This document shows, piece after piece, positions 50,778 to 59,744 of a DNA stretch of 64,000 nucleotides; position 1 is the stretch's first letter, and every line of letters starts with the position of its first letter. The notes under the pieces are model-generated. The model had not been told where the DNA came from. It made no database searches and was given only the letters and a program-made list of their open reading frames with translations. Source of the stretch: Escherichia coli (GTDB lineage Bacteria; Pseudomonadota; Gammaproteobacteria; Enterobacterales; Enterobacteriaceae); NCBI RefSeq assembly GCF_001677475.2, contig NZ_CP015229.1; one strand, 5' to 3'. Position numbers and translations under genes: made by a program.

Positions 50778-51053
50778 TCACGCATACAGTATCGCCTGCA
50801 CGCGCCAGTTATCAGGCTGCTGGTCTTCGTACATGGTAATAATGCGGTACCATGACGCACCTTGTTCTTCGGCCTTTAACGCCACGATACGTTCCACGTC
50901 CTGCGGATCCCCTGAAATATTGCTAACTGAGATCTGACCTATTTCATTCAGGCCCGTCACGCAGTCAGCACTGGCGAATTCTGCAGACTGTGCCGTGGCG
51001 CTCGCAGGATAAGTCACTAATTGCAGCGAGGGTGAGGCAAGTAATTGTTTCAT
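50778..51053 (-). CDS. yjfN: DUF1471 (YdgH/BhsA/McbA family) periplasmic protein YjfN
   Basis: ORF 50778..51080; start trimmed to MKQLLASPSLQL (91 aa); family motif GASWYRIITMYED. Confidence 0.85.
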   Translation of the reverse strand: MKQLLASPSLQLVTYPASATAQSAEFASADCVTGLNEIGQISVSNISGDPQDVERIVALKAEEQGASWYRIITMYEDQQPDNWRVQAILYA

Positions 51054-51212
51054 CGTCAGCTCCATTTTTCGTTTCCCCACATGTTGCAGGGCATTCCATC
51101 GCGGTAATAAACGCCCGAGCTTCCAGCCGGTAATTTATTGTGCACAGGTAAACGCATAGGGACGCAAAGCAATGTAAAGCTGACTATGTAAGTTGTCTGA
51201 TTTATTTACGGT

Positions 51213-51408
51213 ATATACTCGTCATACTTCAAGTTGCATGTGCTGCGCCTGCGTTCACTCACCCCAGTCACTTACTTATGTAAGCTCCTGGGGATTCACT
51301 CGCTTGTCGCGTTACTCGGCCTGAGGCCTCGCCCTTTCAGGGCCAACGCAAGCGTTGTTCAAAACGCCCCTGCCGTTTTGTCCTGCAACTCGAATTATTT
51401 AGAGTATA
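51213..51408. repeat. ERIC (IRU) enterobacterial repetitive intergenic consensus element
   Basis: Core cactcaccccagtcacttacttatgtaagctcctggggattcac matches ERIC1R/ERIC2 primer sequences; inverted ends tatactc...caagttgca / tgcaactcg...agagtata. Confidence 0.85.
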
Positions 51409-51724
51409 AAATGGCTTGTGAATACCACTGTCCTGTCACGATGGTTTCGTCCACCATGACGACAACGTAATAATCAGCTTTTGCAGCGACAGCTTTCGCT
51501 CTGATTTCTGCTAATGCGTCATCCGGAGAACCCCGAACCATCGTGCTTACGCTACCTATTCGCTGTAACCCTTGCGTCTGGTCGCGGCGAATCTCTTGCG
51601 GATGGTCCGTTACTGGCGGTGCTGGCTGTGGCGTACCTTGCAGTGCGCTACAGGCACTTAACATCAACACCAATAATAAACTGGCAAACCGGTAAATAAC
51701 GCTATTACGTTTCCTGCTAACCAT
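51395..51724 (-). CDS. bsmA: Biofilm stress and motility protein BsmA (YjfO), DUF1471 family
   Basis: ORF 51395..51823; start trimmed to MVSRKRNSVIYRFASLLLVLMLSACS (109 aa, lipobox LSAC); motif ADYYVVVMVDE. Confidence 0.85.
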   Translation of the reverse strand: MVSRKRNSVIYRFASLLLVLMLSACSALQGTPQPAPPVTDHPQEIRRDQTQGLQRIGSVSTMVRGSPDDALAEIRAKAVAAKADYYVVVMVDETIVTGQWYSQAILYSK

Positions 51725-51905
51725 AGTGTAGTGCCTTATTAATTTAACTTTGGGGGAATGTTCCCGAATTGTTACCTGGTACGCGATTTTCGAATGAAAA
51801 CGTGACGAAAGCGTAACCCACATCTCAACATTATGAACTAATACCGCCAGCAGAAACTTGTGCTAAGGATTTCTTCATGTCATACCAGACAAAAAGGAGA
51901 GACAG

Positions 51906-52655
51906 ATGATTGAAATAGAATCACGCGAGCTGGCAGATATTCCCGTTCTTCACGCTTATCCCACAGGGCAAAAAGAAACACCGTTACCATGCGTGATTTT
52001 TTATCACGGCTTTACTTCATCCAGCCTGGTGTATAGCTATTTTGCCGTCGCGTTGGCACAGGCTGGTTTGCGGGTGATTATGCCGGATGCGCCCGATCAC
52101 GGTAGCCGTTTTAGTGGCGACGCACCGCGACGGTTAAATCAATTCTGGCAAATCTTGCTACAAAGTATGCAGGAATTCACTACCTTACGTGCGGCAATAG
52201 CCGAAGAAAACTGGCTGCTTGATGACCGTCTGGCAGTCGGTGGCGCGTCGATGGGCGCGATGACGGCACTGGGGATTATCGCTCGCCACCCCACGGTGAA
52301 ATGTACCGCCAGTATGATGGGATCGGGCTATTTTACATCGCTCGCCCATTCACTGTTTCCACCGCTGATACCTGAAACGGCAGCACAGCAGAATGAATTC
52401 AATAACATTATCGCGCCGCTGGCAGAGTGGGAAGCGACAAACCACCTGGAACAACTTGGTGACAGACCTCTACTGCTGTGGCATGGCCTCGACGATGACG
52501 TTGTGCCTGCCGATGAATCACTACGTTTGCAGCAGGCCTTAAGCGAGACGGGACGGGATAAACTGCTAACCTGTTCATGGCAACCAGGCGTGCGTCACCG
52601 CATTACGCCTGAGGCGTTAGATGCTGCCGTGACATTTTTCCGCCAGCATCTTTAA
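51906..52655 (+). CDS. yjfP: Esterase YjfP (alpha/beta hydrolase)
   Basis: 249-aa ORF with GxSxG (GGASMGA). Confidence 0.88.
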
Positions 52656-53407
52656 ACACGCAGAATGCTGACCCCTTGCGCTTCCAGTTGTTGCAGGATT
52701 TCCGGGTTAGCATTTTTGCCGGTGATAAGCATATCGATTTGATCGGCACGGCTAAAAAGCATTCCCGCGCGTTCGCCAATCTTACTGCTATCAACCAGTA
52801 CCACCAGTTTCCCTACCACGCTCAGCATCTTCTGCTCTGCCATTGCCGTCAGCATATCGGTTTTATACAACCCTTCTGCGGTCAGTCCTTTGCCGCTGGT
52901 AAACATCCAGTGCCCGGCATAGAGACTGTTTTCGCTGCCCTGCGGGCTTAAAGTGATGGACTGACTTTTGTTGTACTGTCCACCCATAATGATCACGCTG
53001 TCATGTTCTTGATCGATCAGGTAATTTGCCAGCGGTAGATAATTAGTGATGATTTGAACTGGCTTGCCACACATTTCCCGCCCAAGCAGAAACGCAGTGG
53101 AGCCGCAGTTGATGACTACGCTTTCGCCCGGATTAACCAGCTGCGAGGCCGCTTTAGCAATACGTACTTTTTCATCGTGATTCTGCGCCTGATGCAGATT
53201 CATCGGCGTCCAGCGCGGGCGCTGTTGGGTAATAGCTTCTGCGCCATTGCGCACTTTTTTCAGTTTGCCGCTTTCGTCAAGTTTATTGATATCGCGTCGC
53301 GCAGTAGCAGGCGAAATTCCCAGACGCTCAACGACTTTCTCAACGGTCACAAAGCCCAATTGTGCGAGCATTTCCAGGAGGATTTGATGTCTTTGTGCTT
53401 CAGTCAT
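52652..53407 (-). CDS. ulaR: DeoR-family repressor UlaR
   Basis: 251-aa ORF with N-terminal HTH; overlaps yjfP stop. Confidence 0.92.
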
Positions 53408-53469
53408 GAGCTATTCCGATAAAATTTGATTTTTTTAGATGATATTTGAAATAGCCAGGAAATACTACG

Positions 53470-57790: not shown

Positions 57791-57799
57791 GGAGCGGAT

Positions 57800-58654
57800 A
57801 TGTTGTCCAAACAAATCCCGCTTGGCATCTATGAAAAAGCGCTCCCCGCCGGGGAGTACTGGCTGGAACGGCTGCAACTGGCAAAAACGTTAGGCTTCGA
57901 TTTTGTCGAGATGTCGGTAGATGAAACGGACGATCGCCTGTCGCGCCTCGACTGGAGCCGCGAGCAGCGTCTGGCGCTGGTGAATGCGATTGTTGAAACC
58001 GGCGTGCGCGTGCCGTCCATGTGCCTTTCTGCTCATCGTCGTTTCCCGCTGGGCAGCGAAGATGACGCGGTACGGGCGCAGGGGCTGGAGATTATGCGTA
58101 AAGCTATCCAGTTCGCCCAGGACGTTGGCATTCGCGTAATCCAACTGGCGGGCTATGACGTTTACTATCAGGAAGCCAATAACGAAACGCGTCGTCGTTT
58201 CCGTGACGGCCTGAAAGAGAGCGTTGAGATGGCAAGCCGTGCGCAGGTGACGCTGGCAATGGAGATCATGGATTATCCATTGATGAACTCCATCAGCAAG
58301 GCGCTGGGCTATGCGCACTATCTCAACAACCCGTGGTTCCAGCTCTATCCGGATATCGGCAACCTGTCGGCGTGGGACAACGACGTGCAGATGGAATTGC
58401 AGGCCGGAATTGGGCATATCGTCGCGGTGCATGTGAAAGACACCAAACCAGGCGTCTTCAAAAATGTGCCATTTGGCGAAGGCGTAGTGGATTTCGAACG
58501 TTGCTTCGAAACGCTCAAACAGAGTGGCTATTGCGGGCCGTACCTGATTGAGATGTGGAGCGAAACGGCGGAAGACCCGGCGGCAGAAGTGGCGAAAGCG
58601 CGTGATTGGGTGAAAGCGCGCATGGCGAAAGCGGGCATGGGGGAGGCGGCATAA
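57800..58654 (+). CDS. ulaE: L-ribulose-5-phosphate 3-epimerase
   Basis: 284-aa ORF. Confidence 0.93.
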
Positions 58655-59340
58655 TGCAAAAGCTAAAACAGCAGGTGTTTGAAGCCAACATGGATCTGCC
58701 GCGCTATGGGCTTGTGACCTTTACCTGGGGCAACGTCAGCGCTATCGACCGCGAACGCGGGCTGGTGGTGATCAAGCCCAGCGGCGTCGCCTACGAAACC
58801 ATGAAAGCAGACGATATGGTGGTGGTCGATATGAGCGGTAAGGTGGTGGAAGGGGAATATCGTCCGTCTTCCGACACCGCGACGCATCTTGAACTCTACC
58901 GTCGTTACCCGTCGCTTGGCGGCATTGTCCATACCCACTCAACTCATGCTACCGCATGGGCGCAGGCGGGGCTGGCGATCCCGGCGTTAGGCACCACGCA
59001 CGCTGACTACTTCTTTGGTGATATCCCGTGTACGCGTGGATTAAGCGAAGAAGAGGTGCAGGGTGAGTATGAACTGAACACTGGCAAAGTGATTATCGAA
59101 ACGCTGGGCAACGCCGAGCCGCTGCATACGCCGGGAATTGTGGTGTATCAGCACGGACCGTTCGCCTGGGGGAAAGATGCCTACGATGCGGTGCATAACG
59201 CGGTGGTGATGGAAGAAGTGGCGAAAATGGCGTGGATTGCGCGCAGTATTAACCCACAACTCAATCACATCGACAGCTTCCTGATGAATAAACACTTCAT
59301 GCGTAAACACGGTCCTAACGCTTATTACGGGCAGAAGTAG
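58654..59340 (+). CDS. ulaF: L-ribulose-5-phosphate 4-epimerase
   Basis: ORF 58606..59340; start trimmed to [19 protein letters not shown] (228 aa); ATAATG overlap with ulaE stop. Confidence 0.92.
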
Positions 59341-59403
59341 AACACGCGCTGCGGAAATTTCCTTCCTCGGGAGATAACTGGTCTAATTCCGCAGCCGTTT
59401 TTC

Positions 59404-59435
59404 AAAAAAAGCCCCCTGCGAAGGGGGCAAAGCAA
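59404..59435 (-). terminator. Terminator after yjfY
   Basis: Hairpin gccccctgcgaagggggc (59411-59428) followed on the minus strand by T7. Confidence 0.7.
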
Positions 59436-59468
59436 ACTATGGCAATGTTTCGTTGGTTATACCTGGTG

Positions 59469-59744
59469 CTAGCGATAAATATCCGCGCTGGCGTGCATAT
59501 TGCCGTTACTCCCCGGTTCCCGCATTAGAATCACGTGGTAGTACGTTGCGCCCTGCGCATCTGTCTTTTCATTTAATGCCTGACGTGCTTCACTTTCAGT
59601 GGCGAAGTTATGGTTGATATAAATCACGCCTAAGCTTTGCACATCGTCCATATTTCTGGCCTGGTGGTTATTAATTTCAATGGCTGCCCATGTATTTGCA
59701 CTTAGCAAAAGCACAGCCAGAAGGGCTAAAATACGACTGAACAT
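59469..59744 (-). CDS. yjfY: DUF1471 periplasmic protein YjfY
   Basis: ORF 59469..59813; start trimmed to MFSRILALLAVLLLSANTWA (91 aa); motif GATYYHVILMRE. Confidence 0.85.
   Translation of the reverse strand: MFSRILALLAVLLLSANTWAAIEINNHQARNMDDVQSLGVIYINHNFATESEARQALNEKTDAQGATYYHVILMREPGSNGNMHASADIYR

Follow-up and report, generated by a model that had tools for sequence, protein, structure and literature searches.

The window analysed here, 64,000 nucleotides (nt) of the Escherichia coli contig NZ_CP015229.1, encodes three small proteins of the DUF1471 (YhcN/BhsA-McbA) family, namely YjfN, BsmA (YjfO) and YjfY. An initial annotation made from the DNA letters alone had placed their genes on the minus strand within 9 kb of each other, clustered around the ula operon, and had proposed repeated duplication or insertion of a small gene family at this locus. 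The open reading frame (ORF) list of the window contains all three genes at the proposed positions and on the proposed strand, and the family motifs WYRIITMYED, DYYVVVMVDE and TYYHVILMRE are all found in the translations of yjfN, bsmA and yjfY, respectively. The gene boundaries given in Table 1 follow the start codons of the E. coli annotation. In E. coli AST215, the corresponding genes are annotated as "DUF1471 family protease activator YjfN", "biofilm peroxide resistance protein BsmA" and "DUF1471 family protein YjfY". Of 5426 complete E. coli genomes, 5425 match a region of 10.5 kb around the trio (top identity 97.9%), and 5346 contain at least 80% of it in one piece.

Table 1. Positions of the three DUF1471 genes and of associated features, counted from the first nucleotide of the window.
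Feature	Position	Strand	Description
yjfN	50778-51053	-	91 aa, DUF1471
bsmA (yjfO)	51395-51724	-	109 aa, predicted lipoprotein with C-terminal DUF1471 domain
yjfY	59469-59744	-	91 aa, DUF1471
yjfP	51906-52655	+	esterase; divergent from bsmA
ula block	52652-59340	ulaR, ulaG -; ulaABCDEF +	6.7 kb; from annotation
yjfY intrinsic terminator	59411-59428	-	GCCCCCTTCGCAGGGGGC followed by TTTTTTT (T7); terminator scan
REP-type palindrome	50717-50752	-	gccggatgcggcgcaagcgccttatccggcctaca; in the convergent aidB/yjfN gap
CpxR-box-like motif	51164-51178	-	TTTACATTGCTTTGC; TTTAC-N5-TTTGC, about 125 nt upstream of the yjfN start
ERIC (IRU) repeat	51214-51408	-	195 bp, within the bsmA 3' end
RpsF leader	59989-60073	+	Rfam RF02893, 110 bits

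All three proteins exceed the gathering score of the Pfam model PF07338 (YdgH_BhsA-like; 27 bits), with 61.1 bits for YjfN (E = 1e-16), 53.9 bits for BsmA (E = 1.8e-14) and 73.0 bits for YjfY (E = 2.1e-20), and hence belong to one family by hidden Markov model (HMM) search, as the initial annotation had assumed. With a domain of about 55-67 amino acids (aa) at the C-terminus taken as the family criterion, their layout, an N-terminal signal followed by a single C-terminal domain in proteins of 91, 109 and 91 aa, also fits that of small exported proteins. Ten family genes have been counted in E. coli K-12 (PMC4092069). Besides yjfN, bsmA and yjfY, the K-12 family genes are yahO, rclB/ykgI, ybiJ, mcbA, bhsA, ydgH and yhcN. 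Eletsky et al. (2014, PMC4092069) distinguish about twelve subfamilies, with YjfN, YjfO and YjfY accounting for three, and cite the neighbouring positions of yjfN and yjfO as a sign that the family grew by duplication. The genes, their family and this adjacency as evidence of duplication are thus already known from that study and from standard annotation. Six-frame HMM scans identified no further or decayed family copies in the 64 kb window or in 80 related loci.

Among proteins of known structure, the closest relative of YjfY by sequence is SrfN (2jna, E = 5.4e-7), and no solved relative of YjfN or BsmA was detectable by sequence. SrfN was also considered as a specific sister of YjfY, which proved ambiguous since SrfN scores higher against YhcN (46 bits) than against YjfY (40 bits). 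AlphaFold2 models of YjfN and BsmA based on orthologue and paralogue alignments (predicted local distance difference test scores of 79 and 89.8, respectively) predict a strand-helix-strand-strand core with a short N-terminal helix. The YjfN model superimposes on the YdgH C-terminal domain (4evu) with a target-normalised template modelling (TM) score of 0.87 and a root-mean-square deviation of 1.6, and on the YdgH N-terminal domain (2m2j) with a TM score of 0.81. The BsmA model matches 2m2j and 4evu equally, with a target-normalised TM score of 0.79 each. Foldseek ranks the YdgH domains first for the models, followed by SrfN and then by RcsF. The predicted folds of YjfN and BsmA thus match the alpha+beta fold of solved DUF1471 domains, a set that comprises SrfN, YahO and YdgH domains I and III.

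A synteny scan with one genome per species yielded 80 loci from about 20 genera, including Escherichia, Salmonella, Citrobacter, Enterobacter, Klebsiella, Raoultella, Kluyvera, Lelliottia, Leclercia, Trabulsiella, Buttiauxella, Franconibacter and others. The order rpsF-yjfY-(ula)-yjfP-bsmA-yjfN-aidB, with the DUF1471 genes on one strand and all three present, is kept in 67 of the 80 loci, and contig ends interrupt the trio in most of the others. Orthologues of yjfY were found in 67-68 of the 80 loci, and yjfP constantly separates yjfY from bsmA in all genomes examined. The named loci all belong to Enterobacteriaceae with the exception of one contig labelled 'Chryseobacterium sp. 18061' (L046); the 503 representatives of the wider family described below carry no taxonomy. 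L046 contains the complete enterobacterial rpsF-yjfY-ula-yjfP-bsmA-yjfN-aidB order in a layout nearly identical to that of Citrobacter sp. 18056 from the same project, and its assembly is therefore probably mislabelled or contaminated. A gene for a transporter of the major facilitator superfamily type (about 400 aa) lies beside yjfY in certain species of Klebsiella, Citrobacter and 'Enterobacter', whether or not ula is present; in Klebsiella michiganensis (L057), L037 and L051 it fills a gap of 1.4 kb immediately downstream of yjfY.

Protein identity within the trio is at most 30%. Between positions 50600 and 60100, the search for DNA repeats returned short chance matches, none of them linking the three genes or flanking ula, and the GC content of the genes (0.46-0.52, compared with 0.515 for the window) indicates that they are native. 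The low identity, the lack of a DNA repeat and the conservation of gene order across about 20 genera together indicate that the trio is ancient rather than recent, and that the site held copies long before Escherichia. When ten genes were placed at random on 4.64 Mb in a simulation, three fell within 8967 bp with p = 0.0013, and the clustering is thus not attributable to chance.

The ula block, which is unrelated to the DUF1471 family, is located between the 3' ends of yjfP and yjfY. Among 68 informative species loci it is present in 52 and absent from 16, always at this one site. Without ula, the trio lies within about 2 kb, and the gap between yjfY and yjfP measures 68-173 bp in 14 of these 16 loci. 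Remnants of the ulaR 3' end were identified in Kluyvera georgiana (L080; last 24 codons, E = 1e-6) and Enterobacter vonholyi (L031; last 17 codons, E = 1e-3), as well as a weak one in Citrobacter sp. (L027), which shows that ula was lost by secondary deletion in at least two lineages. Insertion of ula into an ancestrally compact trio was also considered and, given the ulaR 3' ends kept in genomes lacking ula, rejected as a general statement. The convergent ulaR and yjfP genes overlap by 4 bp at their stop codons (52652-52655), an arrangement identical in nine of the ten genera displayed (0 bp in Buttiauxella). The block is a removable unit subject to presence and absence, and the position "around the ula operon" emphasised by the initial annotation is incidental to the trio.

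The relationships among the three paralogues differ from pair to pair. YjfN and BsmA align by BLASTP with 30% identity over 88 aa (E = 3e-8). The best E. coli paralogue of BsmA by BLAST is YjfN (33.9 bits, all others at most 20), and that of YjfN is YhcN (43.5 bits), followed by BsmA (33.9 bits). YjfY is most similar to YhcN (41.2 bits) and YdgH domain I (38.9 bits). Consistent with this, HHalign identified YjfN as the best partner of BsmA (90), and ranked YhcN (80), YbiJ (74) and YdgH domain I (73) ahead of YjfN (64, fourth) and BsmA (58, sixth) for YjfY. Among NCBIfam models, YjfN matches those for BsmA and YhcN equally. The wider family set consisted of 503 representatives obtained by profile search and clustering at 50%, together with the orthologues from the 80 species loci. 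In a neighbour-joining (NJ) tree of 149 non-redundant core domains (67-column alignment, 200 bootstraps), each subfamily was recovered, with bootstrap values of 73% for YjfN, 85% for BsmA and 70% for YjfY, but the trio was monophyletic in 3 of the 200 bootstraps (1.5%). BsmA and YjfN are thus near-reciprocal best relatives, which most likely reflects an old tandem duplication, and YjfY displays no specific affinity to either of them in these comparisons.

One feature is common to all three proteins. The spacing between an invariant alanine and a C-terminal tyrosine of the domain is 23 residues in 12/12 YjfN, 21/22 BsmA and 14/14 YjfY sequences, and also in most YdgH domains, compared with 20 residues in YahO, RclB, YbiJ, McbA, BhsA and most YhcN proteins. 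This longer spacing, which corresponds to a longer C-terminal hairpin, unites the trio and is common to YdgH.

Loci outside those with the full trio differ in their number of copies. These outgroup loci are metagenome or draft contigs, which were ordered by AidB/PriB protein identity only. In L098-L100 (AidB 69% identical), the order is rplI-rpsR-priB-rpsF-yjfP-bsmA-like-aidB-rlmB-rnr; L093-L096 share this order with inserted chemoreceptor or other genes, and L092 contains yjfP-bsmA-like-aidB. No yjfN, yjfY or ula was identified in L092, L093-L096 and L098-L100. Across loci with AidB identities of 55-69%, a gene for a bsmA-like lipoprotein is the sole trio member, and in such single-copy outgroups it sits between yjfP and aidB/yjfL. 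Two members are present in L090 (AidB 63%; yjfP-bsmA-yjfN-aidB), and L089 encodes the full trio without ula (yjfY-yjfP-bsmA-yjfN-yjfL-aidB). An ORF of 69 aa with a signal peptide was found in L093 (6865-7074) at the position of yjfY, between rpsF and yjfP and on the same strand; it did not match the DUF1471 HMM. In its simplest reading, the phyletic pattern suggests that bsmA was the founder and that the site grew by stepwise accretion, first to two genes and then to three.

BsmA is predicted to consist of a lipobox (LSAC), a proline-rich linker (QGTPQPAPPVTDHPQ) and the C-terminal DUF1471 domain, and it matches the equivalog model NCBIfam NF011433 with 150.9 bits (cutoff 100). The lipobox is present in 70 of 76 BsmA orthologues, and the distant BsmA-like proteins, P0095, P0130 and P0142 among them, all keep both the lipobox and the proline-rich linker. 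In E. albertii NBRC 107761 (L015), bsmA (8002-8328) contains two in-frame stops, between DHP and EIRR and between TGQ and YSQ, and is probably a pseudogene, unless these reflect sequencing error.

In the window, the 3' end of bsmA is altered by an enterobacterial repetitive intergenic consensus (ERIC) element, also termed intergenic repeat unit (IRU). The spacer between bsmA and yjfN measures 341 bp compared with 148 bp in ordinary E. coli. Comparison with the ERIC-less E. coli AST215 shows that the element entered the Tyr107 codon of bsmA at a TA and now supplies codons 108-109 and the stop. The protein therefore ends in YSK instead of YRK (R108S), and the former gene end, CGT AAA TAA, lies detached from bsmA at 51202-51210. 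Within the element, an exact match to the ERIC1R primer is located at 51278-51299 and a match to ERIC2 with one mismatch at 51256-51277, and the terminal inverted repeats are TATACTC...GAGTATA. The corresponding RNA hairpin has a folding energy of -85 kcal/mol (z = -6.3) and spans the bsmA stop. An insertion at this bsmA site occurs in 2 of the 5426 complete E. coli genomes, both from river water/wastewater, and the same ERIC insertion is found in the cryptic Escherichia lineages L009-L011, including E. whittamii.

YjfN has been described as a "suicide activator" of DegP/DegQ in vitro, which stimulates DegP proteolysis and is itself degraded (bioRxiv 10.1101/2024.12.25.630354). YjfN ends in ...ILYA, and 78 of 80 orthologues have A or V as their last residue, unlike BsmA and YjfY, which end in K, R or Q; distant YjfN-like proteins end in YR rather than YA. 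The conserved hydrophobic C-terminal residue would fit the published role as DegP/DegQ activator. The signal peptide of YjfN is degenerate in all Escherichia sampled (MKQLLASPSLQLVTYPASATAQS; residues 1-25, 50978-51053; L009-L012 and L015), with a best 9-residue hydropathy of 1.19 compared with a median of 2.09 in other genera, where the Sec-type signal is canonical by hydropathy. This weak signal in Escherichia contrasts with the reported periplasmic action.

Upstream of yjfN, a candidate CpxR-type box (TTTACATTGCTTTGC) was identified that corresponds, in reverse orientation and with one mismatch, to GTAAA-N5-GTAAA, the established CpxR consensus. The box occurs in 77 of 80 bsmA-yjfN intergenic regions (79 species loci and the window) at -110 to -140, compared with 0.8 expected from shuffles. 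These regions are orthologous, and the counts therefore demonstrate conservation rather than independent occurrence. In the window, the ERIC insertion lies just upstream of the box and leaves it intact. The box may mark yjfN's own promoter region. Among published expression modules, the CpxR iModulon includes yjfN, and its gene list does not contain bsmA (PMC7657598).

The initial annotation had also described each of the three genes as apparently monocistronic with its own terminator; such a terminator could be verified for yjfY only. The intrinsic terminator of yjfY combines a hairpin with a run of seven T residues, and a hairpin is found at the same position after yjfY in every other genus displayed, mostly followed by a T-run, which is missing in Kluyvera and Raoultella. 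The terminator scan identified no terminator-like site after bsmA or yjfN in the window or in the ERIC-less E. coli AST215. The sole hairpin after yjfN is the palindrome gccggatgcggcgcaagcgccttatccggcctaca, which is also present in E. coli AST215, lacks a canonical T-run and is presumably a repetitive extragenic palindromic (REP) element, judging by the REP consensus. YjfY carries a strong predicted Sec signal peptide (MFSRILALLAVLLLSANTWA/AIE) with an N-terminal hydropathy of 3.48. Its gene is divergent from rpsF, and the RpsF leader bounds the gap between them so that about 245 nt are left for a yjfY promoter. Rfam models gave just this leader nearby and no structured RNAs between the genes of the trio. 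The proposed transcription units would give each of the three genes its own expression, probably as part of regulons for envelope or general stress.

Further observations concern the window as a whole. From dsbD to yjfZ it runs collinear with E. coli AST215 (97.3-98.7% identity), and even the best match among the 5426 complete E. coli genomes reaches no more than about 98-98.7%. Identity drops from 98.6% over the first 44 kb to 97.3-97.9% past 43.9 kb. The window seems to come from a lineage of E. coli that is under-sampled. Compared with AST215, the rnr/rlmB gap contains about 100 bp of extra palindromic DNA of the REP or bacterial interspersed mosaic element (BIME) type (43885-43984). A guanidine-II riboswitch aptamer (49 bits) at 12004-12050 upstream of sugE and three tandem tRNA-Gly genes at 27000-27416 are expected for this region of E. 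coli.

Taken together, we consider it likely that yjfN, bsmA and yjfY are ancient, functionally diverged paralogues of a family that is probably specific to Enterobacterales, located at the rpsF...aidB site, where copies were gained stepwise long before Escherichia. Family membership, fold, conserved synteny, the absence of recent duplication and the phyletic pattern are shown by the data, and from gene content and order we infer the direction of the gene gains and the origin of yjfN by duplication. The original resident would have been bsmA, encoding an outer-membrane-type lipoprotein with lipobox, proline-rich linker and domain. Next to it yjfN would have arisen, most likely by tandem duplication, with loss of the lipobox giving a soluble periplasmic protein that may have gained its hydrophobic C-terminal residue within Enterobacteriaceae. 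The yjfY gene would have been added across yjfP from bsmA, its origin no longer being legible from the sequence, and ula would represent an unrelated 6.7 kb block in the yjfY/yjfP gap that was lost again in several lineages. The duplication or insertion claimed initially is thus retained in part: outgroup loci with fewer copies support growth of the family at this site, but nothing about it is recent, and sequence evidence for duplication extends to BsmA and YjfN and not to YjfY.

Several results weigh against parts of this reading. BLASTP gave no alignment of YjfY with either YjfN or BsmA, and a local duplication origin of YjfY is thus unproven, as nothing links it specifically to the adjacent family members. 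The NJ tree does pair YjfN with BsmA, but at a bootstrap of just 30% on 67 columns, and HHalign places YhcN (100) and YbiJ (92) marginally above BsmA (89) as partners of YjfN. The single-copy states of the outgroup contigs could represent losses, given that identity of AidB/PriB was the sole basis of their order. As for regulation, yjfN is not among the direct or indirect CpxR targets of the study that lists it in the CpxR iModulon (PMC7657598).

According to an unlikely but still serious alternative, serial local duplication of one ancestral gene gave rise to all three genes, and YjfY has diverged beyond recognition. The tight clustering (p = 0.0013 as above, or 8.5e-5 for the compact form), the shared strand and the distance of about 2 kb in genomes lacking ula would all be expected from such a history, as would the 23-residue spacing, which is otherwise restricted to YdgH and would unite these three by chance in 4 of 120 draws (three from the four long-type proteins among ten). 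These points are outweighed by the affinities of YjfY itself, which does not align with either neighbour, ranks both behind YhcN, YbiJ and YdgH domain I, and has its closest solved relative in SrfN, the product of an unlinked gene in Salmonella; a clade of the three was moreover recovered in 3 of the 200 bootstraps. Independent arrival of the genes, with a proximity devoid of historical or functional meaning, would agree with the lack of a specific relationship between YjfY and its neighbours and with the apparent difference in regulation between yjfN, a member of the CpxR iModulon, and bsmA, which is not in the gene list; we regard it as very unlikely in view of the clustering probability under random placement, the near-reciprocal best match of the adjacent bsmA and yjfN, and the same-strand ybiJ-mcbA pair (46.5% identity, 4 kb apart), which shows that local duplication occurs in this family. 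That small mobile stress genes were recently inserted or horizontally acquired beside ula in E. coli, to which the mobile ERIC repeat between two of the genes and the variable presence of ula itself might have pointed, can practically be dismissed. This view is refuted by the gene order kept across about 20 genera, and against it stand also the 5346 complete E. coli genomes with at least 80% of the region in one piece, the native GC content, the lack of flanking repeats and the secondary, lineage-restricted nature of the ERIC insertion.

The preferred reading of ancient paralogues gained stepwise gives a modest evolutionary picture, in which a family of small envelope proteins expanded at a single fixed chromosomal site from one copy to three. 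The copies then came to differ in their targeting, as lipoprotein or soluble protein, in the chemistry of their C-termini and probably in regulation, and ula, a catabolic operon, is gained or lost within the cluster. Beyond the literature, this adds the location of yjfY in the same neighbourhood, the removable nature of ula, the distant relatives with bsmA alone and the longer C-terminal hairpin, and it could guide the choice of paralogues for joint deletion in studies of BsmA and YjfY function. A more far-reaching and rather improbable extension would make the rpsF-aidB site the birthplace of a 'long-hairpin' DUF1471 lineage (BsmA, YjfN, YjfY and perhaps the triple-domain YdgH), in which an RcsF-like outer-membrane lipoprotein ancestor, BsmA, repeatedly gave rise to soluble derivatives. 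If this were true, the soluble periplasmic derivatives would have taken on new jobs, such as that of YjfN as a protease activator, and BsmA might be an RcsF-like surface or envelope sensor.

Compared with known systems, the trio are bona fide members of the DUF1471/YhcN/BhsA-McbA family by HMM match, predicted alpha+beta fold, export signal and occurrence in Enterobacterales, and nothing about the proteins themselves differs from the published family description (PMC4092069). BsmA shares its layout with RcsF, in which a lipobox is likewise followed by a proline-rich linker and a small alpha+beta domain, and RcsF (2y1b) is the best structural match of the BsmA model outside the family, with a predicted target-normalised TM score of 0.66. 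The resemblance of the family fold to RcsF was already pointed out by Eletsky et al. (PMC4092069). Sequence homology between RcsF and the models is not detectable (12-17% identity), and whereas RcsF depends on disulfides (PMC4092069), the lipobox cysteine is the sole cysteine of mature BsmA, leaving none in the domain. The repeat in bsmA has the conserved core and imperfect palindrome of ERIC/IRU elements as found in enterobacteria but, unlike ordinary elements, overlaps a coding 3' end and provides the bsmA stop codon. Finally, ybiJ and mcbA (K-12 837665-842056) form a loose same-strand pair of DUF1471 genes like the yjf genes, with the unrelated ybiI, ybiX and fiu in between. At 46.5% identity and E values of about 1e-15 to 1e-21, compared with an identity of at most 30% among the yjf genes, their much greater similarity makes an origin by duplication plain, and the pair thus points to local duplication as a way in which the family grows.

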